In this document: positions 6,168 to 63,603 of the stretch, one piece after another
How positions within the stretch are numbered: the first letter of the stretch is position 1
Layout of the letters: the number at the start of each line of letters is the position of its first letter
Source: an uncultured bacterium
Lineage (GTDB): Bacteria; Patescibacteriota; Minisyncoccia; Phycocordibacterales; CAIZLB01
Direction: 5' to 3'
Assembly: GCA_903936565.1 (NCBI GenBank)
Contig: CAIZVZ010000012.1
Span: forward strand, 3,778 to 67,777
DNA length: 64,000 nt
Translations under genes and position numbers: made by a program
Notes under the pieces: model-generated
Seen by the model: the letters and a program-made list of their open reading frames with translations, nothing else
The model's database searches: none
What the model was told of the DNA's origin: nothing

Positions 6168-6180
6168 TTCAACCACTAAT

Positions 6181-45483: not shown

Positions 45484-45526
45484 GGGTAGGCACTCAATTA
45501 CGGCCTTATCAAGCAAAGGCTTCGAT

Positions 45527-45552
45527 GGCGCGGGACCTTTCGGTCCCGCGCC
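45527..45552 (+). other. perfect 11-bp GC hairpin (ggcgcgggacc-tttc-ggtcccgcgcc) about 100 nt upstream of tRNA-Gln
   Basis: read directly; no U-run follows. Confidence 0.35.
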
Positions 45553-45650
45553 ATGCTCATATATGTAAAACCTCAATAAAGATGCATATTTATAAAGCTG
45601 CCATTTCAGGCCTTGATTTATAGTCAATTTCATATTAAAGTATAGAACAT

Positions 45651-45721
45651 TGGGAGATCGTCTAACGGTAGGACAGAAGCCTTTGAAGCTTTTAATCTAG
45701 GTTCGATTCCTAGTCTCCCAG
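45651..45721 (+). tRNA. tRNA-Gln (anticodon UUG)
   Basis: manual cloverleaf: 7-bp acceptor stem with the bacterial tRNA-Gln U1:A72 pair, 4-bp D stem, 5-bp anticodon stem, loop cuUUGaa, T-arm ctagg-TTCGATT-cctag, discriminator G; CCA not encoded. Confidence 0.85.
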
Positions 45722-45767
45722 CACGAGTCAGCGCAGTATCGAGGCAAGACCACAGAGCCTGGTTGAG

Positions 45768-47639
45768 TTGCGTTTCAAAATGGTTGGAGTCTTAAAAAGT
45801 GTGAGCCAATATGTTGGACAAACTATTCATAACATTATGAAAAATGAGGATAAAATATTTACAAGAGAAGATATTTATAGATTATCTTTTTGTGTTATTG
45901 TTTTGTTTTTGGTATTTATCTTACCTAAAATAGATTTATACCCAATGTTTGTAAATTTTTTGGTCCTATTGAGACCAAATATGGACCACTATCCATATGC
46001 GAACCCTCCCATATTTTTTTCGATTGGGGAAGCTTTATCATCTATTGCTATATTATTTGCTATATATCAGTTTAAGAAAGAGAAATGGAGTATTGCTTTG
46101 AGGATAAGAAGTTATATTGAACCTACAATATTTATTTGTATCATCCTCGGTATAACACTATCCTTAGTAGCATCAGTAGTTACTTTTTTTTACCCAACAA
46201 ATATTTTCCTTCTGTCAGTTTTTTGGCAAATTATATCCAGTCTTTTCATAGCCTTTTCAATTGTATTTTTATTTTTAAAAGCAACTAATATAAAGCTATT
46301 TAATAAAAATAATTCTCGTAAATTTTATGAAGTAATGGTTGGGGAATTATCTAGGCCAAGTCCTCAAAGGTTAGATGTTACGTTAGAGGCTTTATTAGAT
46401 AATTTTCAAAATATATGTACAGCTGCAAATGGAGATCGTGAATCAGAAGTTTCTAAATCATCAATAGCAATACTCGATGTGGTTTTAGGAGAGTCTTCAT
46501 TAGTTGAACTTTTGGTTACAAAAAGACTCGATGCATTACGTCATTTGATTTATATTATTGAAAAAAACAACATAAATCAGCGCCAAGCACCTGGTTTTCA
46601 AGTCATCGTAAGGAATTTATTTCTTAATGAAGAATCTTTTTTCTATAGACACCTCAATAGAGATGGTTTATCTCTTTCTTCGAATATTTATGAAAGCATA
46701 TTTGAATACCCAAAAATACTTACAAACTTCAATTTATTTGGATATCCAACTTTGGGTTATTTAAAAAGAAACGATAGTCGTGTTGGCCTAAAAGTATTTA
46801 TACAGGCATTGTCAAAAGCAATAGAAACATACTTAAAAACTGGTAACGTGCCAACAAGTTATATTAATAATGGTTTAGAGTATCTTAGTGAGGCTTTCGG
46901 AAATATTTGCACCAAGATCAGTCTTGAGGAAAGTAGAGGGGTTGATACAAAAAATGTCTTAAGTGAAGAGTGGTGGATATTATATGACATTGCAAATTTT
47001 TTAGGTCACGATTATATATTTATTGCTTACGAAGATGATCTAAACCAAGATGTTATAAGAAACGAAAGGGCTACTTCTGAAGCAAGTTTTCATTCAACTT
47101 CTACAATAAACGCAGGAATTGCAGCTGTTTTGTTTAAATCTTTTGAACAACTGTCGCATATCACTAAAACTGTGGACACTTATTATATTGTTCTAGAGTT
47201 ACTTGGTGGTGTAATGCAAGGGGAAAATTACAAAGAAGGTTACAGAGATCCTTTTGAGAAAAGAATGTGGGAGCAAATTGCAAAAAACGTTATAGGTAAA
47301 CATTACCCTAATGTTTTGAGACCTTACTTAACTTTCATTGGTTTTACATTATCTTCGGAAGATAATAATCAAAGAACAGGTTGGGTTGGTGAACAAACGG
47401 AAAGAATGAGAAGATTGCTTTACATCGATTTAAAACCTTTATTTGATAATGAAGAAAGGATGGTTAACGATAAATTAATGAAAGATATTCTCCTTCCTGA
47501 TTCAATGGATTATATAGATGGTAAATTTCTGTATGTAGATGGTTTTGGAAAAGGTGAACGGAGGATAATCAGTGAACCAGCCCCAGGGTCAAAGTCTGCT
47601 TTAGAGGGAGTTGATACTCAAACAAGATCATTGCTTTAG
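45768..47639 (+). CDS. hypothetical polytopic membrane protein (first island gene)
   Basis: several N-terminal TM helices and a large soluble C-terminal region; no motif recognised. Confidence 0.45.
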   Translation: MRFKMVGVLKSVSQYVGQTIHNIMKNEDKIFTREDIYRLSFCVIVLFLVFILPKIDLYPMFVNFLVLLRPNMDHYPYANPPIFFSIGEALSSIAILFAIYQFKKEKWSIALRIRSYIEPTIFICIILGITLSLVASVVTFFYPTNIFLLSVFWQIISSLFIAFSIVFLFLKATNIKLFNKNNSRKFYEVMVGELSRPSPQRLDVTLEALLDNFQNICTAANGDRESEVSKSSIAILDVVLGESSLVELLVTKRLDALRHLIYIIEKNNINQRQAPGFQVIVRNLFLNEESFFYRHLNRDGLSLSSNIYESIFEYPKILTNFNLFGYPTLGYLKRNDSRVGLKVFIQALSKAIETYLKTGNVPTSYINNGLEYLSEAFGNICTKISLEESRGVDTKNVLSEEWWILYDIANFLGHDYIFIAYEDDLNQDVIRNERATSEASFHSTSTINAGIAAVLFKSFEQLSHITKTVDTYYIVLELLGGVMQGENYKEGYRDPFEKRMWEQIAKNVIGKHYPNVLRPYLTFIGFTLSSEDNNQRTGWVGEQTERMRRLLYIDLKPLFDNEERMVNDKLMKDILLPDSMDYIDGKFLYVDGFGKGERRIISEPAPGSKSALEGVDTQTRSLL

Positions 47640-48964
47640 TTATTTAGATAAATTATTTTATTTTTCATTGTGATTCTAGTATCTAAATTTGCCAACATCT
47701 CTCTTTTCTCTTCAACCGTCCCTTCCGTCAAAATGTGCTCTGTATACTTCTTTGAGTCAAACTCAATTTCTAGTTTTGATTGCTTAACCCCATAAAACTG
47801 TTTTTGGAAGGTGACCATGCGTTCTCGTTCTTGTTCAAATTTTCCTTTGATAAACTTTTGATCAACCTCTATTTTATCTATCATTTCAACTAATTGCTTA
47901 ATCAATTCTTCTTCTCGTAGGTATCCACATTTGCAATCTAAGTTTTTTGACCTGTTACATCCATAGTATATGTAATGTGCTGTACCACCATTCTTGAGTT
48001 TTTTGTATTTATCTTCAGCACAAATTCCTGATCCACATAGTCCGCATGTCATTAGTCTAGAAAATGCATAGTCTTTTCTTTCGTGAGTTATTTCAGATCT
48101 CTTGAGTTGCTCACGGACTTTTTCAAAAAGTTCAATATTTATTAAAGGTTCATGTTTTCCTGTATACCAATTACCACTTTTGACAGGGTATTCAAACTTT
48201 CCATAATAAAACGGTGTTTGTAAAAGTTTATATATATTACTCAAGGTTAATGGCTTGTTGCTCGTTGAACTTCTGAAATTCATCTCAAATTTAAGCCAGT
48301 GGTATATCTTTCTACCACTCCACTTTTCATATGCTACTTTCTCAAACATTTTCTTGATAACTGGTGCTCGTTCAGTATCAATCATTACATACCCCTTTCT
48401 ATCGATTCTCTTTTCGTTCAAATATCCTGTTGGGGCAGGGGCAGGCCATAGCCCCATCTCGCACCTTGTCCTTAGTCCTCTTTTGACATTCACGCTTTTG
48501 TTGTCATTTTCAAGTTTGGCTTGCGAACATAAAATCATAAGAAGGAATTTATCACTAGGTGAGTTACTAAATACTTGCCCATAGGTTTTAATTTCAATAA
48601 GCGCCTTTTGGTCTATGAGATCCACTAAACTTCCAAGATCTCCAGCATTTCTTGATAATCTATCTGGTGCCCATGTTAATATTCCTGAATATCTTCCACT
48701 TTTGATGTACATAAGTATTTCCTTAAAAACAGGTCTTTGTCCTGAATCCTTTGCTGAATGCGATTCACGCCTAATGTCCACAATCTCTAACCCTTCTCTT
48801 TCAGCTATCTGTAGCATCTCGTGTACTTGCGATTCTATCGATAGGATCTGTCGCTCCTCAGATTCTGTTGATTTTCTTGCATAAAGGCAGTATTTTACCT
48901 TTACAGGGCTTGATAGCAGGTTCCTCGTGTCAGGGTTCACTTGTAGCGGGTTTTTTGTTTCCAT
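47636..48964 (-). CDS. large serine recombinase (resolvase/invertase-type catalytic domain, recombinase domain and zinc ribbon)
   Basis: YARKSTE...SIESQ catalytic-Ser region, ...DRLSRN..., C-terminal Cys-rich CGLCG...C region. Confidence 0.85.
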   Translation of the reverse strand: METKNPLQVNPDTRNLLSSPVKVKYCLYARKSTESEERQILSIESQVHEMLQIAEREGLEIVDIRRESHSAKDSGQRPVFKEILMYIKSGRYSGILTWAPDRLSRNAGDLGSLVDLIDQKALIEIKTYGQVFSNSPSDKFLLMILCSQAKLENDNKSVNVKRGLRTRCEMGLWPAPAPTGYLNEKRIDRKGYVMIDTERAPVIKKMFEKVAYEKWSGRKIYHWLKFEMNFRSSTSNKPLTLSNIYKLLQTPFYYGKFEYPVKSGNWYTGKHEPLINIELFEKVREQLKRSEITHERKDYAFSRLMTCGLCGSGICAEDKYKKLKNGGTAHYIYYGCNRSKNLDCKCGYLREEELIKQLVEMIDKIEVDQKFIKGKFEQERERMVTFQKQFYGVKQSKLEIEFDSKKYTEHILTEGTVEEKREMLANLDTRITMKNKIIYLNN

Positions 48965-49092
48965 GCCTACATTGATGACGTAGATTACTGAGGAAGTCTA
49001 GCTAAAATGAGTAAAATTTGGGCTTTTATAACCGATATTTATCTGCAAACTATTCTGTACTACCACGATCTTTTAGAGTAGAATGGTTTGTA

Positions 49093-51549
49093 ATGGTTAA
49101 TCCCCTGACTAATATCACGACGATCAAGAATGTTCATCTGTACAAGTTGCTGCAGGTTTTTTTAAGAGACTTTGGAACCGTCCTTGAAAGATATATTACT
49201 GACATCGTTGATACGGAAAATCCAAAATTACTTATAAGTACTAATTATGCAACTTATAAAATTAGTATTATTGATGGAGAAGAAAATAAAGTAGATAACA
49301 AAACTATAGATATAGGACGTGACGCTCTTGATAAAGACTTAAATAAAATAAAATATTTTATTCGTAGACAGTTTATTGCTGATGAAGAGTTGTCAAACCT
49401 TTACTTGAGGCGTGGTTCTGATATAAAACCACATGAAGTACAAGAGGGTGCACTCAATAGTCTTGCTGCGGCTCGAGATGATAATTTAAAAAGAGCTTTA
49501 GTTGTGTTTGCCACTGGACTTGGAAAAACTATTTTATCAGCCCTTGATGTTAAAATGTTTGACGCAAAAAAAGTTTTATTTATTGTTCATATCAATGAGA
49601 TTTTAAGACAGACTAAAGATGCTTTTGAAAAGGTTATGCCTGAAAGGAGAGATGATTTTGGTTTTTTTACAGGCAAACAAAAAGATAGACAAAAAGACAT
49701 TTTATTTACTTCTATACAGACGATTGGTAGGCAAAAACATATCGAAACATTTCCTCCAAGCTACTTCGATTATATTATAGTTGATGAGACACACCATGTA
49801 GCGGCACCTACTTATAGGAAAATATTTGAATATTTTACACCGAAGTTCTTTCTTGGTCTAACAGCAACACCAGATAGAATGGACAAGAAAGATATATTGA
49901 GTTTTTATAACGAGAATGTTGTATTTGAAATGGATCAGAAGGCTGCAATTGAACAGGGTTATTTAACCCCATTTCGATACCTAGGTTTTAAAGATAATAT
50001 AGATTATTCCGACATTTACTTTAATGGATTCAAATATGACACCAAAGATCTTAATAAACATCTTCTTATTAATGAGCGTGATGATGCCATAATAGAGAAA
50101 TTTAAATTGCACGCTTTTGATAGAAAAACAATCGGATTCTGTGCGTCTATTGAACATGCAGAAAGATGTGCAAAAAAATTCAACGAGGCTGGAATAAAAT
50201 CGATAGCAATTCATTCAAAAAGTTTAGAGCTTGATGACTATGAGGATAAAACAAAAGGATCTCTTGTGGACCATTTTAGGAATAATAGATGTCAAATTGC
50301 ATTTACTGTTGATATGTTCAATGAGGGGGTCGATATTCCAGATGTTTCTTGCTTACTTTTTTTGCGTCCGACGGAATCAAAGACAATATTTGTTCAGCAT
50401 ATGGGACGTGGCCTACGTATAGCGCCAAGCAAAGAAAATGTGATTATTCTAGATTTTATCGGTAATTATAGGACTGCAAACCTAATATTAGAGGCTCTAG
50501 ATATTGAGAATAATATTCGAGGTCTTAAAAAGACTTGTGTAGATAATAAAGATATGTTTATTTACGAAATTAATGGATGTGAGGTATGTTTTGAATCAGA
50601 GGTTGTAGATATATTTAAAAATAATGAAGTCCTTTATTCTAAAGAAATCAGAGAAGATGTTGTTGATATTAGGTGGAAGGAGTATTCAGAGTATTTAGAT
50701 AAATGGACTAAGGATAATCTGTATTGGAAATGTGGTCAGCATAATAAATATTTTGAAGTGCATTTCGAGGCACTGAAGATAATCAAGGAAAATAAGGGTA
50801 TTGGGGAGAAGGATTTTATTGAAAAGATTCAGAAAGTTGTTACTGAAAAATACGTTAATAAAAATATGACTGCTGGTTTCAGAGCTTTAATGTTGAGCAA
50901 GATATGTGGTTTTGTTTCGTCTGATTCGCCATTAATGCCGATGCAACCTTATGACGTTATTTACAAAATAACTAAGGATTTTTCAGATTTAAGAAAATAT
51001 GAGGATATATTAACTCAACAACTTGAAAAAATATTCTATTGGAACCCTATCTATGGTTCATATAATAAATATGTTGATTTGACTAAAAGGGTTTCATTTA
51101 AGGATTTTAAAATATACCCGTTTTTCTTAATATACGATGTAATGATTAGATTACTCGATGATTACGGTTCTGAACCGTGCATAAGTAAGTTTGAATTTGA
51201 TACTTTTTTGTCTATTACTAAAGAACACATAGAATCAAGAGATGTGGCGGAAAAGATATTGCGTTACCGTAATGATGACGAAAAAAAGCAGGTTGAAAAG
51301 CTTTTGAATTCAAAAAACCACATCGATTCAAGGTTTTTCGGCATTTTACATTACTGTAAATATATTAAAACTGATAAAAGAGGTGTTTCCATTAAACCTG
51401 AGTGTATTGAAGAAATACGGTTGAGAGTTGGTAAATTTAGGGGATTATATGAATCTGGAAAACTGATTATGTACAGCACAGAGTCTCCAAAAACTTATAA
51501 AGATATGCTATACTCAGAGGGTGACTTACTCAGTTTTCATGTTAACTAA
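49093..51549 (+). CDS. SF2 helicase (ResIII/DEAD-like ATPase core) with a C-terminal domain homologous to the N-terminus of the 54243-55601 product
   Basis: Walker A ATGLGKT, DEAH-like box VDETHH, motif III GLTATP; start taken at MVNPL (49093; the ORF track starts at 49018); stop codon abuts the start of the next gene. Confidence 0.75.
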   Translation: MVNPLTNITTIKNVHLYKLLQVFLRDFGTVLERYITDIVDTENPKLLISTNYATYKISIIDGEENKVDNKTIDIGRDALDKDLNKIKYFIRRQFIADEELSNLYLRRGSDIKPHEVQEGALNSLAAARDDNLKRALVVFATGLGKTILSALDVKMFDAKKVLFIVHINEILRQTKDAFEKVMPERRDDFGFFTGKQKDRQKDILFTSIQTIGRQKHIETFPPSYFDYIIVDETHHVAAPTYRKIFEYFTPKFFLGLTATPDRMDKKDILSFYNENVVFEMDQKAAIEQGYLTPFRYLGFKDNIDYSDIYFNGFKYDTKDLNKHLLINERDDAIIEKFKLHAFDRKTIGFCASIEHAERCAKKFNEAGIKSIAIHSKSLELDDYEDKTKGSLVDHFRNNRCQIAFTVDMFNEGVDIPDVSCLLFLRPTESKTIFVQHMGRGLRIAPSKENVIILDFIGNYRTANLILEALDIENNIRGLKKTCVDNKDMFIYEINGCEVCFESEVVDIFKNNEVLYSKEIREDVVDIRWKEYSEYLDKWTKDNLYWKCGQHNKYFEVHFEALKIIKENKGIGEKDFIEKIQKVVTEKYVNKNMTAGFRALMLSKICGFVSSDSPLMPMQPYDVIYKITKDFSDLRKYEDILTQQLEKIFYWNPIYGSYNKYVDLTKRVSFKDFKIYPFFLIYDVMIRLLDDYGSEPCISKFEFDTFLSITKEHIESRDVAEKILRYRNDDEKKQVEKLLNSKNHIDSRFFGILHYCKYIKTDKRGVSIKPECIEEIRLRVGKFRGLYESGKLIMYSTESPKTYKDMLYSEGDLLSFHVN

Positions 51550-53145
51550 ATGAAGAAATTCAATAAAAATATTACAGCCGAATCACATCCGTCGCATTAT
51601 ATGATGCATAAATACTGGGGTAGAAAGCCTCACAATGTTGTTCGTGACTATATTTTAAATTTTACTAAGCCTGGAGACGTTGTCCTAGACCCTTTTATGG
51701 GTAGTGGAGTTGTCGTCATAGAATCTCTAAAGATTAATCGTAAGGTAATTGGAATAGACTTAAATCCAATGGCTTGTTTTATTGCTCAGAACACAATCAA
51801 TGATGTTGATTTGGATGATTTCTCGGTTGAATTTGAAAAAATATACAAAAAAAATTATGATCTTTTTTCTAAATTGTATCTTACTAAGTGTCCAACATGT
51901 AAGACAGAAGTTCCTTTCGAAAATTCTATTTGGGAACTAGAAGATTTTGTTAAGATAAAAGGTACGTGTTTACTTTGTGGTAAGTTTACAAAAGATACTG
52001 ATTCCCATGACCACAAAACATTCAATAAATCTAAGGATATTTTTTTCGAATTGAATAGTCAAAATAAAATATTTTATCCAAAGGATGAAATATTAAAGTT
52101 CGTCAAGAGAAACGGAAAAAGTCATGTTAATCAATTTTTTACCGATCGCTCTCTTGCTGTGCTTGGATCTATTATAAAAGATATAGAGAAGATAAAAAAT
52201 ATTAATACAAAGAATTTGGTTTTGATGTGTTTTACTTCAATGTTACCAAACGTGTCTAAAATGATTCCTGGAGATAAAGATACTGTAAATGGCAGATCGG
52301 GTTGGGTAATAAGTAAGTTATGGGCTCCCAAGATACACACAGAACGCAATCCATTGAACAGTTTTAGAGAAAGATTTAAAAAAATTAAAAAAGGAAAATT
52401 AGAACTAATTGATGCTTTTAACGCAAAGGATGCAAAAATATTAAACATTGACGCTACAAACCTAAAGGTAATAAAGAGTTCATCGGTAAATTATATTTTT
52501 ACTGATCCACCGTATGGCGATAGCATTGCTTACTTTGGGTTGAGTATGTTCTGGAATTCGTGGCTTAAAAAGGTTGTGGATTATGAAAATGAAATAATAT
52601 TTGATCCTTATAGAAATAAAAAATACGAAGATTATTCGAACCGAATGAAAAAAGTGTATGAAGAGTTGTTTAGAGTTCTTAAAAATAAGAGCTATTTGTC
52701 ATTTACTTTTCACAATAGAAATTTAAATATCTGGAAAGCTGTCATGGATGCTGTAACTGATGCTGGATTTCATCTAGTTAATGTTGTATATCAAGAACAG
52801 GCAGTAGCGTCGGGTACGCAAGGTATAAACAGAAATAATACACTTCGTGGTGATTTTGTATATAATTTTTTAAAGGACTCAAGTGTTATTTCTAAAAAAA
52901 ATAGCAACTTAAGTAAAATAGATAATGAGATAGAAATAATAAAGAAAGTAGAAAAATGGATTTTAAAAGCTGAAGGATCAATAACTTCTGACGCGTTATA
53001 TGAAAAGTTAATCCCGTTCATTGTTGAAGGTCAATTGTATGCTGATAATAACGGATTGGTTATGAACATAGAAGATGTGTTAAAGAGACATTTTGAATAT
53101 AGTTTTATCAAAACAAAAAAAGAATATGGCTGGCAAAAAAAATAA
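51550..53145 (+). CDS. DNA N6-adenine/N4-cytosine methyltransferase
   Basis: AdoMet motif I VLDPFMGSGVV at the N-terminus and catalytic motif IV DPPYG at ~residue 310; atg directly follows the helicase stop. Confidence 0.8.
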   Translation: MKKFNKNITAESHPSHYMMHKYWGRKPHNVVRDYILNFTKPGDVVLDPFMGSGVVVIESLKINRKVIGIDLNPMACFIAQNTINDVDLDDFSVEFEKIYKKNYDLFSKLYLTKCPTCKTEVPFENSIWELEDFVKIKGTCLLCGKFTKDTDSHDHKTFNKSKDIFFELNSQNKIFYPKDEILKFVKRNGKSHVNQFFTDRSLAVLGSIIKDIEKIKNINTKNLVLMCFTSMLPNVSKMIPGDKDTVNGRSGWVISKLWAPKIHTERNPLNSFRERFKKIKKGKLELIDAFNAKDAKILNIDATNLKVIKSSSVNYIFTDPPYGDSIAYFGLSMFWNSWLKKVVDYENEIIFDPYRNKKYEDYSNRMKKVYEELFRVLKNKSYLSFTFHNRNLNIWKAVMDAVTDAGFHLVNVVYQEQAVASGTQGINRNNTLRGDFVYNFLKDSSVISKKNSNLSKIDNEIEIIKKVEKWILKAEGSITSDALYEKLIPFIVEGQLYADNNGLVMNIEDVLKRHFEYSFIKTKKEYGWQKK

Positions 53146-54250
53146 AAAATTAAAAATTATAGATTTGTTCGCAGGGGTAGGAGGTCTTTCGTCGGGATTT
53201 AGAAAGGCAGGTTTTGAAGTTGTTTCAGCTAATGAATACAAACCTGATATAGCAAATACTTATATAAAAAATCACCCAGAAACGAAGATGTTTATAGAGG
53301 ATATTTCAAAAATTAAATCATCAGATCTGGTTAACGGAGAAGAAATTGACGTAATCGTAGGAGGACCTCCTTGTCAGGGATTTAGTATGGCGGGTCGCAG
53401 AATAAGAAATGATGGAGCTTTTTTAAATGATCCAAGAAACGAGTTGTTTAAGGAATTTCACCGGATAGTAAAAGATGTAAGACCAAAGGTTTTTGTTATG
53501 GAAAATGTTGCGGCAATGCTTAATATGCATGGGGGTACTGTAAAAGATAAAATAATTGAAATATTCAAAGAGATTGGGTATGAGACTGAAGTCAGAGTAC
53601 TTCTTGCTGCGGAATATGGAGTGCCACAACTTAGAAAAAGAGCTGTGTTTATTGGTAATAGGATTGGATTTAGTCCAAAGGATTTTTTTCCAAATAAAAC
53701 TCATGGCCCTCTATGTTCAAAACCTTTTGTTTCAGTAGGGGAAAGTATTTTAGATTTACCTAAAATATTGTCAGGGGCCGGAGAGTTTGAATCAGAATAT
53801 TTAAATAGTTCAGACATGACTAGTTATGAGAAGGAAAGAAAATCTAACTCCAAAAAACTTTATAATCACCAATCAACTAAACACGACAAAAGAATTATAG
53901 AGTTGCTTAAAAATATTAAACCAGGGCAAGGGCGAATTCATATACCTAAAGAGTTACAGACAAAATCTATTCATAGTGGTGCTTTTGGAAGACTAGAAAA
54001 AGGCAAACCAGCATATACTATTACGACTAGGTTTGATACACCTTCTGTAGGTAGAGTAACCCACCCCGTCTCTCATAGAGCCCTGACTCCTCGCGAGGCT
54101 GCAAGAATTCAATCTTTTGACGACGATTTTATTTTTTATGGAAATAAAAGTTCGATTGGAGTTCAGATTGGAAACGCTGTTCCCCCTCTATTAGCCAAGG
54201 CTATAGCATTGAAAATTAGAAGTGTCTTAGATAAACAAAAAAATGATTAA
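53126..54250 (+). CDS. DNA cytosine-5 methyltransferase
   Basis: motif I LFAGVGG, motif IV GGPPCQGFS, motif VI ENV, motif X QIGNAVPP; overlaps the upstream gene by 20 nt. Confidence 0.9.
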   Translation: MAGKKNKKLKIIDLFAGVGGLSSGFRKAGFEVVSANEYKPDIANTYIKNHPETKMFIEDISKIKSSDLVNGEEIDVIVGGPPCQGFSMAGRRIRNDGAFLNDPRNELFKEFHRIVKDVRPKVFVMENVAAMLNMHGGTVKDKIIEIFKEIGYETEVRVLLAAEYGVPQLRKRAVFIGNRIGFSPKDFFPNKTHGPLCSKPFVSVGESILDLPKILSGAGEFESEYLNSSDMTSYEKERKSNSKKLYNHQSTKHDKRIIELLKNIKPGQGRIHIPKELQTKSIHSGAFGRLEKGKPAYTITTRFDTPSVGRVTHPVSHRALTPREAARIQSFDDDFIFYGNKSSIGVQIGNAVPPLLAKAIALKIRSVLDKQKND

Positions 54251-55601
54251 AAAATATATTGAATTATTAAAAAACAAGGGTACTAAAAACTTTTGGAAAA
54301 AGGCTAAGCAAAAGGAGTATACAAAAGATGCTGTAAATAAAATATATCATGATTTGACTGCTCATTTTGAAGATCTAACCACACGTAACAGTATAACTTT
54401 GCGTTATTTAGGTTTAGTAATTAATCTAGGATCTGATAATCTAAAAGTTTCAAATGCTGGAGAAACATTTATAAGTTCCCCTTATAAGCAAAAAATATTA
54501 GATGAACAGATAATGAAAATTTATCTTGATTGCCCAAGACTCAATGATAATCTTTCCATTAAAATTGCCCCAATGGAGATTCTTCTGCATGTCTTGTATA
54601 AAATAAATTTTGTATCTTTCGAGGAGTATCAACTTTTCGTCTGTTGGATAAATAGCAAAGAGGATGTTGATCTGGCGCTTGATTTAATAAGCGAATATAG
54701 ACAATCTAATAAACAGTATTTATATATGTATGCCTTGAAAGAAAAGAGTGAAGAACTTGGTATAAGTGATTTTTCAGATAATGTTAAAAGATTTTTTGAC
54801 ATGTTATTAATATCTTCTTATATAACAAAAGATTATAATAATAATTTGTCATTAGCACTTTCTAAAAAAGACACCGAAATAATATTAGAGAGCTTTTCAT
54901 TAAGAGATTTTAGTGACGAACATTATTTTGATTATCTAACTACTAATAATGGTTGGCAGATTTACTCTATAAATCCGAATTATATTCGTGTCATTGAAAG
55001 TCTTGAGAAAAAAACAACAGAAGAGCAAGAAGATATAATAAATAATATAACGAACGACTTGAAGTTTCCAAATATTGACGACGTCAAACCTAAGATTATA
55101 GAGGTTGAAATTGATGATAGTCGTAGTGAGGAAGAGTCAACCCCTACAAGAAAAAAACTATCGCCACATAAAATTGACTTTGAAATTAGGGACAATAATA
55201 ATAGGGCGGCAGGGGATTTTGCGGAAAAAATCGTAATTAAACATGAGATAGAACAACTTTCTGAGGCAAATCAAACCACGGTTGATAATGTTAAGCAGGT
55301 TTCTCTAGAGGATGACACTTTGGGGTATGATATACTCTCATTTGATTTTGATGGGGTTACTGAGAAACACATAGAAGTTAAAGCTGTGAGAAGTGAACCC
55401 TCAATATCTTTCAGATTTTATATTTCAGAAAATGAAGTTTTAATAGCAAAGAATGATCCTAATTATTATCTTTATATTGTGTTTGGGTATCTTTCTGATA
55501 CTCCTTATATATATAAGATGCCGAATCCATTCACTAAAGATATTCCAGGAGTCACAATTGATCCAATTAAATATATTGTAACTGTTAAACTTAAAAAATA
55601 A
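54243..55601 (+). CDS. putative restriction endonuclease: N-terminal domain shared with the helicase, C-terminal PD-(D/E)xK-like (DUF3883-like) motif
   Basis: GYDILSFDFD...EKHIEVKA fits a D-(x)n-E-x-K nuclease signature; 8-nt overlap with the C5-MTase stop; its N-terminal domain aligns to helicase residues ~700-830. Confidence 0.45.
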   Translation: MIKKYIELLKNKGTKNFWKKAKQKEYTKDAVNKIYHDLTAHFEDLTTRNSITLRYLGLVINLGSDNLKVSNAGETFISSPYKQKILDEQIMKIYLDCPRLNDNLSIKIAPMEILLHVLYKINFVSFEEYQLFVCWINSKEDVDLALDLISEYRQSNKQYLYMYALKEKSEELGISDFSDNVKRFFDMLLISSYITKDYNNNLSLALSKKDTEIILESFSLRDFSDEHYFDYLTTNNGWQIYSINPNYIRVIESLEKKTTEEQEDIINNITNDLKFPNIDDVKPKIIEVEIDDSRSEEESTPTRKKLSPHKIDFEIRDNNNRAAGDFAEKIVIKHEIEQLSEANQTTVDNVKQVSLEDDTLGYDILSFDFDGVTEKHIEVKAVRSEPSISFRFYISENEVLIAKNDPNYYLYIVFGYLSDTPYIYKMPNPFTKDIPGVTIDPIKYIVTVKLKK

Positions 55602-55617
55602 AATTAATATCATATTT

Positions 55618-56016
55618 TTAAGTACTACTATCAAGTTCCGTCTTTTTTGATTCACCACTCTTGTCCTGCGGATTGTGTATCTCATATATAATCTTCTCCA
55701 CACCATGGTGAATCGGCTCAAAGAAGCCTCTAGGGCGAGGCTTTACATATTCTTTATGATTATTTTCTAACCATAATTTAGAGGCTCGAAAGTCGCCTTT
55801 CTTAATCAGAGAAATAATATGTCCTTCAGCAAGGTCGTTCACACTAGAGCGACCTTGTTTTAGTGCTTTTTCAAGTTTTTTAGCAAATCTTTTATCTTTT
55901 TCTTTCCACCTATATATAGTTGCTTTGCATATGCCAACTCGTCTACAAACAACAGATATGAGTGGAATCTCAACAAGTTCTTGAAGGAACTTTTCTTTAT
56001 CATCATGATTTTTCAT
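55618..56016 (-). CDS. HTH DNA-binding protein resembling a phage terminase small subunit
   Basis: ISVVCRRVGICKATIYRW helix-turn-helix; co-oriented with, and overlapping, the ParB-methylase gene as in phage packaging modules. Confidence 0.4.
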   Translation of the reverse strand: MKNHDDKEKFLQELVEIPLISVVCRRVGICKATIYRWKEKDKRFAKKLEKALKQGRSSVNDLAEGHIISLIKKGDFRASKLWLENNHKEYVKPRPRGFFEPIHHGVEKIIYEIHNPQDKSGESKKTELDSST

Positions 56017-57343
56017 GTATCTTTATTGCTTTTTTGCCAGTAAGATTTTCCCAGCGTTTTTTTATGACTTCTGCATATACTGGAGATTTCTCCATCAAGA
56101 AACACCTGCGGTTCATTCTGGTTGATGCCATAAGTGTTGACCCACTTCCTCCAAATGGTTCTACAATTAGATCATCTCTTTTGGTAAGGACTTTGATGTA
56201 GGGGATTAGTATCTCTAATGGTTTTGTGCCAAATATAACACCCTGTCCAGACGATGCTTCATCAGATGCTTTGTACTCAATGAAGTCTGTTGGACATATT
56301 TTCTTTCCTTTCTCGTACCCTTCCCATTGTGGCTTGCCTGAAATTGCATAAAGAGCTGTCTGATACTCATTCTCAAGGATTTCATCTTCTGGCTGAATAT
56401 TCATCTCTACAGAGTCTTCTGTTGTTCCAACCATAGCTATGTCATGTTTGCTAAAAAACTTATACTTAGCCGAGAAACCTTGAGTTCTGTTTGGTAAATG
56501 CCACACAAGCATGTTTTTTACCTTCCAGTATTTTTCCATCTCATTCCAAATGATTCTAATATTCTTCCAATTTTCATAAACGATTATATGAAAATTGTCT
56601 TTGGAAATATCTTTTATGTTCTTCATCCACAGTTCTGTGAAGTTGTCTGGTAGGGAATCAGTTTCAAGATATCTTCGATTCTTCTTTGCTCCAAAACCTG
56701 TAGTGACCCCATCCTTTTGTTTTGTTTTGCCAGACAAATAATCTAGTATATAAGGAGGGTCAGTAAAACACATATCGGCCTTGTGACCGTCCATGAGTGT
56801 TTGCATATCAGATTCTATAGTACTATCTCCACACATTAGTCTTGATCCATCTAAGTCATATACATCGCCCTTCTTAATGTCTATGTTTTGAATATCTAGT
56901 TTATGTAGTTCCTTTTCCAGATCAAACATCTCAGTTGTTTCTTCGGTAAGGAAGATATCGTCTAATTCTTCACTTGAAAAGCCAATGTCAGAAAGAAAAG
57001 TCTCGTCAAACTCCTTAAGTAAATCTAGATCAAATTCCCCAGTATTTTTATTTAGACGAATATTCAACTCCTTTTCTTTTTCAAGATCTGCGATATTCAC
57101 ATAAACTACAGGTATTAAATCTATACCTAGTTCTTTTGCCACTTCGTATCTGAAACACCCGCCAATTATCACATTTTCACGTCCGGGTGCATTGTTGCAT
57201 ATAATAGGATCGATAAAACCGAATCTCTTTAAAGATTCTTTTAACTGGTCGGATTGGTCCTTGGAATGTTTTCTTGGATTGTAATCTGGTACTACTAACA
57301 TGCTCGTTGAGAGATACTCAACTTTAATATTCTCCTTGTTCAT
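56003..57343 (-). CDS. ParB-like nuclease N-terminal domain fused to an N6/N4 DNA methyltransferase (phage-type orphan methylase)
   Basis: ParB-N fold residues ~1-90; DPPY motif CFTDPPYILDY; C-terminal AdoMet motif VEPFGGSGST (beta-class motif order). Confidence 0.8.
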   Translation of the reverse strand: MNKENIKVEYLSTSMLVVPDYNPRKHSKDQSDQLKESLKRFGFIDPIICNNAPGRENVIIGGCFRYEVAKELGIDLIPVVYVNIADLEKEKELNIRLNKNTGEFDLDLLKEFDETFLSDIGFSSEELDDIFLTEETTEMFDLEKELHKLDIQNIDIKKGDVYDLDGSRLMCGDSTIESDMQTLMDGHKADMCFTDPPYILDYLSGKTKQKDGVTTGFGAKKNRRYLETDSLPDNFTELWMKNIKDISKDNFHIIVYENWKNIRIIWNEMEKYWKVKNMLVWHLPNRTQGFSAKYKFFSKHDIAMVGTTEDSVEMNIQPEDEILENEYQTALYAISGKPQWEGYEKGKKICPTDFIEYKASDEASSGQGVIFGTKPLEILIPYIKVLTKRDDLIVEPFGGSGSTLMASTRMNRRCFLMEKSPVYAEVIKKRWENLTGKKAIKIHEKS

Positions 57344-57666
57344 ATTTAATTTAATTAACTAATAAAATCGAATCTTTCCTATATAAATGTAGTTTTTAGA
57401 GTTAATTTGTAGGTGAAAGTTTGCAAGCGTTTGGTTTAATATCAGTTTTATGCACTAATTATATAACATATAAAACAAAAAGCATTAAAAAGTGTGCATA
57501 AATTTAAAATGTAAGTTTTTGATCTATATTTTTGAGTAAGAACCATGAAATGAATATCGGCGTTTGCTGATAACTTGCCAGAGACATGATTAGATAGCCC
57601 AGAGGCTCTTTGTTTCAAATTTAGCAAAAATCTAGTAGACTTAGGACAAATATAATAAACAATACA

Positions 57667-59163
57667 ATGAGCCATATAATCTCAAAAACACTTTTTCTAG
57701 AGTACCGCTATTGCCCCAAGAATATTTGGCTTAAGCTAAATAAACGAGAATTACTTGATAAGTTCACACTTTCCGACTTTGAAAAGCATCTTGCAGAGCA
57801 GGGGAATGAAGTTGAATCATGTGCTAGAGGTTTGTTTTCCAAGGGGGTTGAAGTTAAGTCTAACGGGGAGGGTGCTTGCATAGAAACTGTGCAGCTTATA
57901 ACATCAGGAGTTAAAACACTTTTTCAATCAACGTTTATTGTCGATGGATTTATTGCTCGTAATGACATACTCCACTTCGATGAACAGAATGATTGTTGGG
58001 ACTTATTTGAAGTCAAAGGTACAAATAGTTTAAAGGAAAGTGGAGAAAGAGATCATATTGAAGATGTAGGGTTTCAAGTTTCAGTTCTTAAGCGTGCAAA
58101 TGTGAGGATAGGTAAATATTTCTTGATTCATTTAAATAAAGAATATGTACGCGACGGCGATTTAGATCTAGGTCTTCTATTTAAAATAGAAGATGTGACA
58201 GAAAAAGTAAATGAGAGATTGGTAGATATTGAAAAACAAATGGATTCAGCTCGTGAATATTTAAATAGAGAAAGTGAACCAGAAGGAGGTTGTGACTGTG
58301 TATACAAAGGGAGAGGTAAGCATTGCTCAACGTTCAAGCATTCTAACTCGCATGTGCCTGACTATTCAGTTCACGATCTTTCAAGTATAAGAGAAAAGAA
58401 AGTGACTGAATTAATAGAAAATGGAATCTTTGAGCTAAATGACATTCCAGATGAGTTTGAATTATCTGATAATCAAAAACTTCAAATAAGTGCTCATGTA
58501 AGACAATCGCCAATTATTGATTTGGGTAGTGTAAAGGATGAGTTAGATAAACTTGAATTTCCTTTATACTTTTTTGACTATGAAGCTTTTGCTCCAGCAA
58601 TTCCAATGTTCAATGGTTATAGCCCTTACAATCCAATTCCATTTCAATTTTCTTTGCACATATTAGATGCGCCAAATACTGAGATGCGACATGTTGAATT
58701 TCTGCATATGGAAAGAACTGATCCATCACATCTAGTCGCCGAGATTTTAGACAAACATATTTCAAATAAGGGGACAGTAATTGCTTGGAATAAGTCTTAT
58801 GAGACAAGAGTGAATGAACAGATAGCTGCACGCTTACCACAATACAATAGTTTATTTAGTAGAATAAATAGTTCAATGTATGATTTACGTGATATATTTC
58901 AAAAACAGTATTATGTGCACCACGGCTTTAAGGGTAAGACTTCTATAAAAAAAGTTCTTCCAATTCTTGCTCCAGATCAGCGTTATGATGTTCTAGATAT
59001 TCAAGAAGGTGGACAAGCTGCAGACGCATGGTGGAGGATGGTGTCTCCCGTCCCTGGCGATGAGGAGAAAGCTAAGATTGCAAAAGATCTAAAGATTTAT
59101 TGTGGTTTAGATACATATGCGATGTACGCGATTTGGAAGCATTTAGTTGATTTAATGAATTAA
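57667..59163 (+). CDS. two-nuclease protein: Cas4/RecB-like Fe-S PD-(D/E)xK domain plus C-terminal DEDDy 3'-5' exonuclease-like domain (DUF2779-like architecture)
   Basis: N-terminal YRYCPKNIWL, D...DLFEVKG motifs, C-x-C-x8-C cluster (GGCDCVYKGRGKHC); C-terminal FFDYEAF (Exo I), YDLRDIF (Exo II), YCGLD (Y-x3-D). Confidence 0.55.
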   Translation: MSHIISKTLFLEYRYCPKNIWLKLNKRELLDKFTLSDFEKHLAEQGNEVESCARGLFSKGVEVKSNGEGACIETVQLITSGVKTLFQSTFIVDGFIARNDILHFDEQNDCWDLFEVKGTNSLKESGERDHIEDVGFQVSVLKRANVRIGKYFLIHLNKEYVRDGDLDLGLLFKIEDVTEKVNERLVDIEKQMDSAREYLNRESEPEGGCDCVYKGRGKHCSTFKHSNSHVPDYSVHDLSSIREKKVTELIENGIFELNDIPDEFELSDNQKLQISAHVRQSPIIDLGSVKDELDKLEFPLYFFDYEAFAPAIPMFNGYSPYNPIPFQFSLHILDAPNTEMRHVEFLHMERTDPSHLVAEILDKHISNKGTVIAWNKSYETRVNEQIAARLPQYNSLFSRINSSMYDLRDIFQKQYYVHHGFKGKTSIKKVLPILAPDQRYDVLDIQEGGQAADAWWRMVSPVPGDEEKAKIAKDLKIYCGLDTYAMYAIWKHLVDLMN

Positions 59164-59164
59164 A

Positions 59165-59695
59165 ATGAAAAATAAACTTACAAAACATTTAAATTTCTCC
59201 AGTATATCACTATGGAATGAAAAATTTGATGATGTTCTGGAATTGGATAAACATCTAGATAAGTTAGATAAAAGAGTTGTTTTCATTGGTCTTAACGCAA
59301 CAAAAACACTTGATCCTTTTCTAAATTTTCATTCTGTGAGAAGAGGGGGAAGAGATAGATGGATCAAAGAGGCTTTCGACAATGGCAATTTAGGAATTGT
59401 CTATATGACTGATGTAATTAAGAATGATACAACGGTGGATTCTGGTAAGGTAAATTTGTCAAAAGAGAATATTAAAGAAAATCTTAAATATTTAAAGCAA
59501 GAGTTGTTAGATTTGAGTAGTGATAAAAAGCTGGTGATTGCAGTGGGAGGTGAAGTTAAGAAAATAATTTTAAATAATAAGGACTATCTAGGTGTAGAGG
59601 ATGTCTTTTGTTGTAGGTATTATGCTAGTCGCTGCACAAAGGATGAATTTCTAAGGAGTTTCTCTGATGTTGTAAAAGAAATAATTAAAATATGA
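59165..59695 (+). CDS. hypothetical protein (176 aa)
   Basis: abuts the stop of the upstream nuclease gene; no motif recognised. Confidence 0.4.
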   Translation: MKNKLTKHLNFSSISLWNEKFDDVLELDKHLDKLDKRVVFIGLNATKTLDPFLNFHSVRRGGRDRWIKEAFDNGNLGIVYMTDVIKNDTTVDSGKVNLSKENIKENLKYLKQELLDLSSDKKLVIAVGGEVKKIILNNKDYLGVEDVFCCRYYASRCTKDEFLRSFSDVVKEIIKI

Positions 59696-60258
59696 AAATA
59701 GACATAAATAAAATTGAAAAAGACTCATTAAAAATTAAAAACATTAGTGATAATTCATATATTCAGTCTTATAAAGAATTCATTAAATATTTTGATGGTT
59801 TAGATGAGATAAAAAAAGAAAATTTAATAATAGGTTCACATCTTGTGTATGGCTGGATGCCAAAGGTCTTGCGTCTTAATTTGAGACAGGAGAAGGAGGT
59901 ACTTCAAATTTTAAATGAAGTCAAAAGAGGTGTGTTAATATCAAAAACAAATTTGGAAACCTTGAGGTCAGCAATAGGTAATTCAATGGTTGGCGTATCT
60001 AAGCTTCTGCATTTTATATCACCAAAGAAGTATGCTATTTGGGATAGCCGGGTATATAGCTATATCCATAATGGTGTAAAGCCTTATGACTATCAGATAA
60101 AAAGACCTGAATTGTATTTGGAATATTTACAAGAAATGGAGAAGGTCTCAAAAGAAACTGCTGTAAAGGAAATACAATCTACCGTAGTGAAAGCTTGCGG
60201 ATATAAAGCAACTCCATTTAGAGCTATTGAATTAGTTATGTTTGAGACAGGTAGGTAA
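59692..60258 (+). CDS. hypothetical protein (188 aa)
   Basis: 4-nt overlap (atga) with the upstream ORF. Confidence 0.4.
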   Translation: MKIDINKIEKDSLKIKNISDNSYIQSYKEFIKYFDGLDEIKKENLIIGSHLVYGWMPKVLRLNLRQEKEVLQILNEVKRGVLISKTNLETLRSAIGNSMVGVSKLLHFISPKKYAIWDSRVYSYIHNGVKPYDYQIKRPELYLEYLQEMEKVSKETAVKEIQSTVVKACGYKATPFRAIELVMFETGR

Positions 60259-60301
60259 AAGGTCTTTAATTATTCTCAGACAGGAGTATTATATTAGGTA
60301 T

Positions 60302-60964
60302 ATGAGAGTCCCAGATGAAAAAATTCAAAAAATGAAAGATATTCTTGAAAAAAGAGGTGGAAAGGAAGTAACTTGGGCAGAAGCTTCTGATGCTTCAACT
60401 AGACTATCAAGTCTCATGGAGTTACTTTTAAAACATGCACAGGAAGACTGGAAAAGGGAACAGAAGCTCAAAGAATATCCAAAAGGTTTTTCTTTAGGCG
60501 GTGTCGGTTATTCTTGCTTTATATGTGGACAAGGAACTTCTTTAAATGGAAATTGGTACGATAAATATGGAATAAAATGTATGGTCTGTCAGGATTCAAT
60601 TAACAGAAAGGAAATACCCGCAAGTTTATCTAAGGATAAAGAAAGTTGGTATAGTAAATATGATCTAGAAGGTAGTTTTAATTTGAAAGCACCAACCCTT
60701 CGAGGTTGGATAAAGAGAGGTATTATCAAAGCTCGTACACTTACATATAATGGAAAGGGTGTGCACTATCAAGTATTTCTAATTAAGGATAACAAAGGAT
60801 TTTTACCACCGAAACATATGGTAAAAAATCAATTTGTTAGTGAGGAGATTGACGGTAAAATTTGGCATCATTCAGAACCTTGGTATAAGTTTGTTGACCC
60901 TTTTGAGCACTTAAAGGACTATGGAATCATGAAGTATATGAGTTACACGGAAGTGGAAAAATAA
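60302..60964 (+). CDS. hypothetical zinc-ribbon protein
   Basis: CFICGQG...(15 aa)...CMVCQ four-Cys ribbon; start taken at MRVPDE. Confidence 0.4.
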   Translation: MRVPDEKIQKMKDILEKRGGKEVTWAEASDASTRLSSLMELLLKHAQEDWKREQKLKEYPKGFSLGGVGYSCFICGQGTSLNGNWYDKYGIKCMVCQDSINRKEIPASLSKDKESWYSKYDLEGSFNLKAPTLRGWIKRGIIKARTLTYNGKGVHYQVFLIKDNKGFLPPKHMVKNQFVSEEIDGKIWHHSEPWYKFVDPFEHLKDYGIMKYMSYTEVEK

Positions 60965-60978
60965 TTTTCTATTTTCCC

Positions 60979-61022
60979 TCTATCCCTATGATGTTTGGGT
61001 ACCCAAACATCATAGGGATAGA
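60979..61022. repeat. perfect 44-bp palindrome (two 22-nt arms with no spacer, centred on gggtaccc)
   Basis: tctatccctatgatgtttgggt|acccaaacatcatagggataga read directly; no flanking T-run. Confidence 0.9.
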
Positions 61023-61408
61023 AGAGAAGTACGTCAATAACACTACAACACAAAGTTGTGTTGTAAACATTAATTTTGAAATTGATCTTAATGATGTATT
61101 GGAAAGCATTAGAGTGTTGCTCTATTATATCAGAAAAACGGCTAGAAATAAAGGTTTAGTTCCAAAATCAAAGAATATTTTTTTAGTCATAACATATTGC
61201 CCAGTGTGTCTCATTTGTCTTATTTTGGAAATAAAACACCCGACCGAGACGGGTCAATATGATACAATAATAATCGTTGAAGAACCCTTACGGTGTCTCA
61301 CGGTGAGAGGTTCTAGACCGAAGTACACAGCTGATTTTTCCTCTATGTGCGAAGCGCATAAATATTAGATTAAATCATCCCGAGCCTCGCGAGGGACAGT
61401 TTTTGCAA

Positions 61409-61468
61409 GCCTTATTTATCAACGTATTTTCGGGTGGGGTATTGTGGGGTTCGAACTTCTGATATAAT
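61409..61468 (+). promoter_or_regulatory. copy 1 of a repeated ~52-nt motif (gccttattt...tattttCgggtggggtaTtGtGgGttcGaacTtctg) ending in an extended -10 tgatataat
   Basis: about 80% identical to 63552-63603; tgatataat lies 9 nt before the ATG at 61478. Confidence 0.35.
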
Positions 61469-61477
61469 ATTTGTTAT

Positions 61478-62572
61478 ATGAATAATAAATTAAAAATATC
61501 ATTAATCGTCGTAATAATTGTCGTTTTAGTAATTGCAATCGTACAATCGTCAAAACAATCAAACTCTCAGATAAAAATCGGGGCAGTAATACCTCTAACT
61601 GGCACTGGAGCATTTTGGGGTGAGCCAGCTCAAAATGGAATCTTCTTAGCGCAAGATACAATAAATAAAAAGTATGGACCTAACGCGGTAAATATATTAA
61701 TTGAGGATGGTAAGAGTGTGCCGCCTGAGTCGGTTACAGCAGCACAAAAGCTATTGTCAGTAGATAAGGTGGATGCCGTGTATACAGAACTGTCAGGTCC
61801 AAGTGGCGCCGTTGCACCTGTCGTAAAAAATGCAAATAAAATATATTATTATAGTGCATTCAACCCATCGATTATATCTCAAAATGATAATTCAATAAAA
61901 GGATTCCTTTCTTTTTATGACCCTTGTGATGTGTTTGGAAGATATTTGCAACGTATGGATATAAAGAAAGTAGCTATATTTAATCAGTTTGCAGGTGTGG
62001 CACCTTCTTGTCTTGCTGCGCTTGATAAATATATATCTAAAGACAACATATTACTTTTTGAAAATCTACCAAAAGATAATGATTACAGAAGTATTCTTCT
62101 GGAGATAAAGAATTTTGGAGCTGGTGCTGTAATTGGTATGACATATGAAGGTCCGTCATTGGCGTGGATAAGGCAAATGCACGACCTCGGTATTAAGATT
62201 CCAGTATTTAGTGGGGTTGAAGCATCTCTTACTCAAAAAAATATTGATACAATCGGTGCTGACAAATTAGCAGGTAGTTTGTACTTTACGCCGAAGATTA
62301 ATCAGAGTTTTATTGAATTATATAATCAAAAATATCCAAATAGACCAGGTTCAGATTTAGAGCCAGCAGCTTATGCTTACGAAGCGATGGTGAATCTTGC
62401 TGAGGCTATGGTTACATGTAAATCTAATGTAGCATGTACTGTTCAGTCATTCCGAAATCGTAATAGTGACGCAGGTGCTATTTCTGACACAAAATATATT
62501 GATAGAGTGTTAACTTCTACTTTAAATTATTACCTAATCAATTCTGGTACAAGCACTCCGTTTAACATTTGA
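61478..62572 (+). CDS. ABC transporter substrate-binding protein (periplasmic binding protein type I, branched-chain amino acid binding-like)
   Basis: signal/TM anchor then KIGAVIPLTGTGAFWGEPAQNG..., a LivJ-like N-terminal signature. Confidence 0.65.
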   Translation: MNNKLKISLIVVIIVVLVIAIVQSSKQSNSQIKIGAVIPLTGTGAFWGEPAQNGIFLAQDTINKKYGPNAVNILIEDGKSVPPESVTAAQKLLSVDKVDAVYTELSGPSGAVAPVVKNANKIYYYSAFNPSIISQNDNSIKGFLSFYDPCDVFGRYLQRMDIKKVAIFNQFAGVAPSCLAALDKYISKDNILLFENLPKDNDYRSILLEIKNFGAGAVIGMTYEGPSLAWIRQMHDLGIKIPVFSGVEASLTQKNIDTIGADKLAGSLYFTPKINQSFIELYNQKYPNRPGSDLEPAAYAYEAMVNLAEAMVTCKSNVACTVQSFRNRNSDAGAISDTKYIDRVLTSTLNYYLINSGTSTPFNI

Positions 62573-63451: not shown

Positions 63452-63551
63452 TTTTTAAATCTAAACTTGCTCCAACATCGTCCTAAACAGCCAGCCGATT
63501 TTTAAGCGTAAAAATCGCGCAGAAATCAGCAGATTTCTGCCTAAATGTTAA

Positions 63552-63603
63552 GCCTTATTTCCAGAGTATTTTTGGGTGGGGTAATATAGGATTCAAACAT
63601 CTG
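63552..63603 (+). promoter_or_regulatory. copy 2 of the repeated ~52-nt motif
   Basis: gccttatttccagagtatttttgggtggggtaatataggattcaaacatctg; 56 nt upstream of the ATG at 63659. Confidence 0.35.

Follow-up and report, generated by a model that had tools for sequence, protein, structure and literature searches.

The perfect 44-bp palindrome at 60979-61022 is most likely a fairly ordinary, lineage-specific hairpin. The reading that we favor, with a probability of roughly 0.4, is that it forms an RNA stem-loop at the end of an operon running from a DUF2779 gene to a zinc-ribbon gene, where it would act as a terminator-like barrier or as a stabilizer of the mRNA 3′ end, in either case without a U-tract. 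Positions are those of the window, by which we mean the whole stretch of 64,000 nt that was analyzed. It derives from a member of the Patescibacteria (CPR), and the homologs of the neighboring proteins carry names such as Moranbacteria, Taylorbacteria, and Paceibacteria. The palindrome sits inside an apparent genomic island, which we infer to span ~45723-61331 and to lie at the 3′ end of a tRNA-Gln gene. The element at the right end of this island, and the family of recombinase/tRNA-Gln islands to which it belongs, are more interesting than the palindrome.

Sequence and occurrence of the palindrome

The features concerned are as follows.

60979-61022, no strand: palindrome; in RNA form, a stem of 20 bp closed by a GUAC loop, about −33 kcal/mol
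60970-61031, no strand: imperfect extension of the palindrome, 31+31 nt, 87% complementary

The stretch 60979-61022 reads TCTATCCCTATGATGTTTGGGT followed directly by ACCCAAACATCATAGGGATAGA, an exact palindrome of 22+22 nt with zero spacer, centered on GGGTACCC (GGGT/ACCC, with a symmetric central TA and perfect arms). The original prediction held that it is exact and could not plausibly arise by chance, and both points were confirmed: at the composition of the window, hairpins with perfect arms of at least 22 nt and loops of 0–8 nt are expected ~1.1e-7 times per 64 kb, and none of 100 shuffles yielded two matches to the palindrome arm. The window contains one copy and no half-sites at up to three mismatches. 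The region 45723-45770, which had been proposed as a place to look for half-sites, has none, nor does any other part of the window.

Wider searches gave the same picture. The palindrome is single copy in the 64 kb together with ~20 kb of flanks, its exact 20-mer is absent from 185,579 GTDB species genomes, a 26-mer is absent from IMG/VR, and there is no copy beyond the orthologs in 169 related loci (1.36 Mb). A blastn search with 57400-61500 against phage and plasmid collections found no match, and Rfam 15 returned for the palindrome generic microRNA-precursor models only, at 27.5 bits versus a gathering score of 118. The possibility that GGTACC is a restriction target was dropped, given that the window shows no avoidance of this site (seven observed vs. 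7.5 expected).

The palindrome is interior to contigs in five independent assemblies from at least four samples, and thus it is not an assembly artifact. The contig interiors likewise speak against a sequencing adapter, and the single copy in the sequence searched speaks against a generic repeat, the two explanations that had been raised at the outset. It is identical in ERZ18650788 and ERZ18650074, and occurs with one mismatch, T61010C, in 3300028581, ERZ27250570, and SRR8441843. This substitution, which marks a sister lineage, gives an A.C mismatch in the plus-strand RNA and a G.U pair in the minus-strand RNA. As far as these assemblies tell, T61010C shows that perfect symmetry is not strictly maintained, and it is otherwise non-discriminating.

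Extent and gene content of the island

The following features define the island and its ends.

45651-45722, plus strand: tRNA-Gln(UUG), adjoining the left end of the island
45726-45763, plus strand: left-end motif, conserved beside tRNA-Gln(CUG) in a related island (L170)
47636-48964, minus strand: large serine recombinase, 442 aa, with Resolvase, Recombinase, and Zn_ribbon_recom domains
60302-60964, plus strand: zinc-ribbon ORF, last in the island, 220 aa, Cys4, with an HTH-like region
61331..61332, no strand: probable right island-host junction, where homology with the sister element in L003 and L005 stops

Two comparisons carry the delimitation. A sister element (in L003, L004, L005, and L011) is 96% identical to the window along the backbone bounded by the HTH and zinc-ribbon genes, with upstream cargo and downstream genes that differ from those of the window, and its homology passes through the palindrome and ends sharply at 61331/61332. 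In L170, where the recombinase is 84% identical, the pair formed by the recombinase and a 610-aa ORF lies beside a different tRNA-Gln (CUG), and the 40 nt that follow this tRNA are conserved with window positions 45726-45763. The proposed span and the tRNA-Gln site follow from the stop of homology on the right at 61331 and from the adjacency of the L170 left end to tRNA-Gln. In the window, the left junction region lies near 45722-45765, next to the tRNA-Gln 3′ end, and the GC content drops from ~0.40 to ~0.31–0.33 after the tRNA gene (45651-45722). By direct comparison, 14 of the 23 positions in 61309-61331, the right end of the island, agree with the 3′ end of tRNA-Gln. A search for an empty integration site found none, as every contig with the flanking host genes also carries the island; the closest homologs of the right-flank gene occur in a different genomic context.

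Beyond the right end, an intergenic repeat of ~100 nt is found at 61345-61446 and 63550-63603 of the window and at 7863-7963 and 9157-9257 of L003. Because it recurs at 63550 and, after other genes, twice in L003, the sequence from 61345 onward is considered to be of host type. The repeat, with its hairpin and TGGGGTAATAT-like box, follows several genes in this organism and in a relative, and probably represents a terminator and promoter region common to them. A related hairpin, GCAGAAATCAGCAGATTTCTGC, is found at 63519-63540.

Two other observations bear on the history of the locus. Two independent assemblies of the same organism (L168 and L169) break within ~250 bp of the left end (at window positions ~45987 and ~45520), which may indicate population heterogeneity in island carriage or breaks induced by repeats. 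In addition, identity to L003 rises from ~96% over 55670-60763 to 99.6% over 60764-61331. Such a jump at ~60764 indicates recent recombination that moved the 3′ end of the zinc-ribbon gene, the spacer with the palindrome, and the terminal element together.

The island encodes a 623-aa ORF convergent with the 442-aa large serine recombinase, a cargo of restriction and methylase genes, a NOV_C-domain protein, a small-terminase-like HTH protein, and a ParB-N methylase. The zinc-ribbon protein (240 aa if started at the TTG at 60242) belongs to a well-conserved family without a Pfam entry and has 256 homologs at 40–66% identity, mostly in Patescibacteria. Its AlphaFold model has a pLDDT of 92, and comparison of this model with PDB folds gave no match with an E-value <1. 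Some of its homologs are fused to a C-terminal HNH nuclease (e.g., P0029, 350 aa).

In two islands the recombinase pairs convergently with an ORF of 610–623 aa of no known family, beside tRNA-Gln (UUG in the window and CUG in L170, positions 4726-8200). Homologs of the recombinase were plentiful: all 8000 candidates scored had E <1e-50, and among the best 120 of these 8000 identity was 65–84%, apart from a self-cluster at 100%. Judging from these matches, Patescibacteria harbor very many members of this recombinase family, and their conservation is unusual. To our knowledge, it is uncommon for a serine-recombinase element to integrate at a tRNA gene.

A conserved terminal element at the right end

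The last part of the island is a non-coding element with the following parts.

61155-61331, plus strand: terminal element of the island family, ~130–180 nt, non-coding, at the right end of the island
61155-61175: degenerate inverted 9-mer
61207-61224: tandem 9-mers TGTCTCATT/TGTCTTATT
61238-61254: small inverted repeat
61260-61268: TGaTACAAT
61309-61331: end resembling the 3′ end of tRNA(-Gln)

Across loci, the element has tandem 9-mers of the form TGTCTCATT or TGTCACTTT, preceded in some cases by an inverted copy, as well as a small inverted repeat and a conserved 3′ end (GGTTCTAG..CGAG....CAGC); many members also have an extended −10-like box. A profile HMM search (nhmmer) detected it in 107 of 165 loci with a zinc-ribbon homolog, and nearly all of the hits (120 of 123) are on the strand of the zinc-ribbon gene. 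Some loci have two or three copies, for example L146 (5577-5755, 7753-7859, and 8430-8525) and L053 (7050-7191 and 9704-9823). In 46 of the 102 loci with a downstream copy, the element starts no more than ~80 nt past the zinc-ribbon stop, so that a 44-bp site such as the palindrome could hardly, if at all, fit in between.

The element has no match in Rfam. RNAalifold gave no consensus structure on either strand, and for this reason we dropped the idea of a structured RNA and treat it as an element that acts at the DNA level. It may combine the P arm for the recombinase, sites for a regulator, and an outward promoter. A small RNA with its own promoter and terminator was also considered here and rejected, the terminators being better assigned to the host flank. 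No column of the zinc-ribbon protein alignment discriminated between loci with the TCTCAT and the TCACTT variant of the 9-mer. A hairpin without U's that lies just upstream of the element in L160 had seemed to be a second example. It consists of two inverted copies of the 9-mer motif of the element itself, and is therefore not comparable.

The spacer and its hairpins

Between the zinc-ribbon gene and the terminal element lies a spacer with two hairpins.

60965-61154, no strand: spacer with both hairpins, confined to the near-identical relatives L001-L005 and L011
61043-61066, no strand: second hairpin, a 10-bp perfect stem (TACAACACAA/TTGTGTTGTA), terminator-like on the minus strand in the scan

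The spacer, ~190–240 nt in length, is lineage-specific. Because it is confined to near-identical relatives, the palindrome falls outside the conserved machinery of the island family. A 125/126-aa ORF (60988-61368) that was called across the palindrome is spurious; the conserved element that it crosses aligns with many indels. On the minus strand, the spacer has a perfect extended −10 box (TGaTATAAT, 61132-61124) with an ATG 15 nt downstream, and a 46-aa ORF (61109-60969) that has one hydrophobic segment and ends within the palindrome. These could specify a small toxin-like peptide or a small RNA, or could be chance occurrences in AT-rich DNA.

A proposed stem-loop at the end of an operon

The palindrome begins 14 nt past the stop codon of the zinc-ribbon gene (60964), on the coding strand. 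Its original placement at the island boundary does not hold, as the right end, at 61331, is another ~310 bp away. No other 3′ hairpin of the window matches its stability of −32.9 kcal/mol; the other strong operon-end hairpins are found 17–67 nt past stops. In folding comparisons with shuffles, z was −8.5 for a 121-nt RNA of the plus strand and −7.7 for the minus-strand RNA.

Of the hallmarks of an intrinsic terminator, the palindrome has the stable hairpin shortly downstream from a stop on the coding strand and lacks the U-run and A-run, its tails being AGAGAAGT (plus) and GGGAAAAT (minus). The terminator scan did not call it, and we concur with the earlier view that it is not a standard intrinsic terminator, with no U-run on either strand. 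The lack of a U-tract 3′ of the stem on both strands, together with that of an A-tract 5′ of it, counts against a terminator. However, about half of the other strong operon-end hairpins in the window (e.g., 45525-45554 and 63519-63540) have no U-tract either, so its absence does not exclude a role at RNA 3′ ends. The intergenic regions of related Patescibacteria loci commonly contain long perfect palindromes, with 18 distinct examples (arms of at least 18 nt) in 1.36 Mb. Given that 16 of these 18 have an A-run and a T-run, the present palindrome, one of the two with neither, is atypical for the terminators of these genomes.

On the reading that we favor, the operon would consist of the DUF2779, 176-aa, 188-aa, and zinc-ribbon genes (57667-60964, plus strand), with the palindrome as its 3′-end stem-loop. 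Transcripts that read past the stop at 60964 would fold into a perfect 20-bp hairpin of about −33 kcal/mol, and this hairpin and the second one at 61043-61066 may stall or terminate RNA polymerase, possibly with the assistance of a factor. Alternatively, the hairpin could keep exonucleases off the 3′ end of the mRNA or provide a site for RNase III. Either mode might insulate the operon from the host genes farther on and from the terminal element, whose promoter-like sequence faces outward. As the stem is purely Watson-Crick, the same hairpin would form in a minus-strand transcript and may block convergent transcription. An insulator at this position is evidently not a general requirement of the family, as the terminal element so often (46/102) begins within ~80 nt of the stop. 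Both the transcription of the region and the action of the hairpin in ending or stabilizing transcripts are deduced here from sequence features.

Alternative explanations

The perfection of the arms could have a neutral origin, either in a quasi-palindrome perfected recently by template switching or hairpin-templated repair or as the leftover of a small insertion, in which case no selected function need be sought. We regard this as unlikely, yet deserving of serious consideration. The spacer of 190–240 nt is confined to near-identical relatives, the perfect symmetry has already been lost in the sister lineage (T61010C), and no partner site or copy is present in any collection searched. Moreover, two substitutions in total separate the window lineage from the sister lineage over 60764-61331; with too little time for decay, perfect arms need not be a sign of selection. 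The location argues otherwise, as it is where an operon-end hairpin is expected, 14 nt past a stop and with a second hairpin next to it, and a perfect arm of 22 bp, at ~1e-7 by chance, still calls for a specific generating event. We consider it rather improbable that a dimeric island protein uses the palindrome as a site at the DNA level, whether as an operator over a minus-strand promoter or as a cruciform, packaging, or replication signal of an excised circle; candidate binders would be the zinc-ribbon/HTH protein, the TerS-like HTH protein, and the ParB-N methylase. Such a site would fit the perfect dyad symmetry with Watson-Crick pairs only, the several predicted DNA-binding proteins encoded nearby, and a promoter-like match on the minus strand (TTGACG-17-TATGAT, 61037-61009) that puts its −10 box inside the right arm. 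However, promoter-like matches in the palindrome region are not enriched (28 vs. 32.5 in shuffles), the 64 kb contain no second site or half-site, 44 bp is far beyond the usual length of an operator, and the tandem and inverted 9-mers shared by related islands (TGTCTCATT or TGTCACTTT) bear no relation to the arms and are better candidates for protein sites. The protein-binding site that was originally suggested also fares poorly across the family: the palindrome is missing from all other related islands with the same zinc-ribbon gene and recombinase family, including ~100 islands that encode homologs of the same proteins. The suggested replication or packaging signal finds no support, as no Rep, relaxase, or large terminase (TerL) is encoded, and a GC-rich center disfavors cruciform extrusion. 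As for a protelomerase target, which is a perfect palindrome in the telRL type, scans of island proteins (Pfam, PHROGs, and PADLOC) detected no protelomerase domain, and the palindrome lies inside contigs. A functional DNA site of a Patescibacteria defense island, that is, a cruciform or dimer site of the excised circle that serves as a replication start, packaging signal, or switch, is in our estimation a long shot, and equally so is the accompanying notion that this lineage acquired the palindrome between the zinc-ribbon gene and the terminal element.

We give still less credence to a minus-strand transcript that would start from the extended −10 box at 61132-61124 and encode a small RNA or a type I toxin-like peptide of 46 aa, with the palindrome as a structured 3′ region antisense to the end of the zinc-ribbon mRNA. 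The perfect match to the box and the ATG downstream from it, the hydrophobic segment of an ORF that terminates inside the palindrome, and the G.U pair that T61010C gives in minus-strand RNA are consistent with this. On the other side, by an estimate from base composition, chance alone should yield ~7 extended −10 matches of this kind in a window, the ORF is without a Shine-Dalgarno sequence and is not conserved outside the identical lineage, hydrophobic ORFs arise readily in AT-rich DNA, and the hairpin at 61066-61043 would halt the transcript before the palindrome. Very little can be said for the palindrome as an attachment or recombination site of the large serine recombinase, as had been proposed, even though the recombinase is encoded in the island and the size (44–62 bp) and dyad symmetry recall serine-integrase att sites, such as the attP and attB of phiC31 and Bxb1. 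The junctions are elsewhere (61331/61332 and the tRNA-Gln 3′ end), 310 bp from the palindrome on the right, and an integrated element should not retain an intact symmetric site. In addition, the central TA is palindromic, and a palindromic central dinucleotide would abolish the directionality of a serine recombinase. The palindrome has no partner site, its arms show no evident likeness to the island end sequences when compared by eye, and it is missing from related islands whose recombinases are 65–84% identical. These DNA-site alternatives failed where they could be tested (no half-sites, no junction, and no conservation with the recombinase or the zinc-ribbon protein), which adds to the case for the RNA stem-loop.

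Significance

By itself, the palindrome is minor, a single-copy and lineage-specific operon-end hairpin. Nothing about it is unusual except its length and its missing A/T tracts, two traits by which it departs from the common bidirectional terminators of these genomes. Should it indeed end or stabilize transcripts, it would exemplify U-tract-independent 3′-end formation in Patescibacteria, and we know of no studies of transcription termination in this group. The surrounding results are more useful. They place the island at ~45723-61331, point to an island family that is widespread in the Candidate Phyla Radiation, with a highly conserved large serine recombinase and a location beside tRNA-Gln, and reveal a conserved terminal element of ~130–180 nt with tandem 9-mers and no Rfam match. 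A full-text literature search found no published description of such a recombinase/tRNA-Gln island.

Comparison with known systems

The attP and attB sites of large serine recombinases resemble the palindrome in length (~40–60 bp) and dyad symmetry, and the island does encode such a recombinase. In contrast to these sites, the palindrome is off the junction, perfect, symmetric at its central TA, without a partner, and not conserved with the recombinase.

Most of the long palindromes in related Patescibacteria loci (16/18) are of the kind known from bidirectional intrinsic terminators, in which A-tract, GC stem, and T-tract follow one another. The palindrome is like them in being long, perfect, intergenic, and just past a stop, with an identical hairpin on both strands. 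It differs in having no T-run after the stem or A-run before it; indeed, the runs are the other way around, TTT preceding the GGGTACCC core and AAA following it.

Stem-loops without a U-tract at 3′ ends stabilize mRNAs or mark processed ends that arise by factor-dependent termination, as in REP-type stabilizers and the RNase III hairpin of phage lambda sib. The sib hairpin is imperfect, and its function depends on its position relative to att. Unlike REP sequences, the palindrome is single copy. It shares with this group its stability, its position a few nucleotides past the last gene, and its lack of a U-tract, and its perfect duplex of 20–22 bp is long enough for an RNase III substrate.
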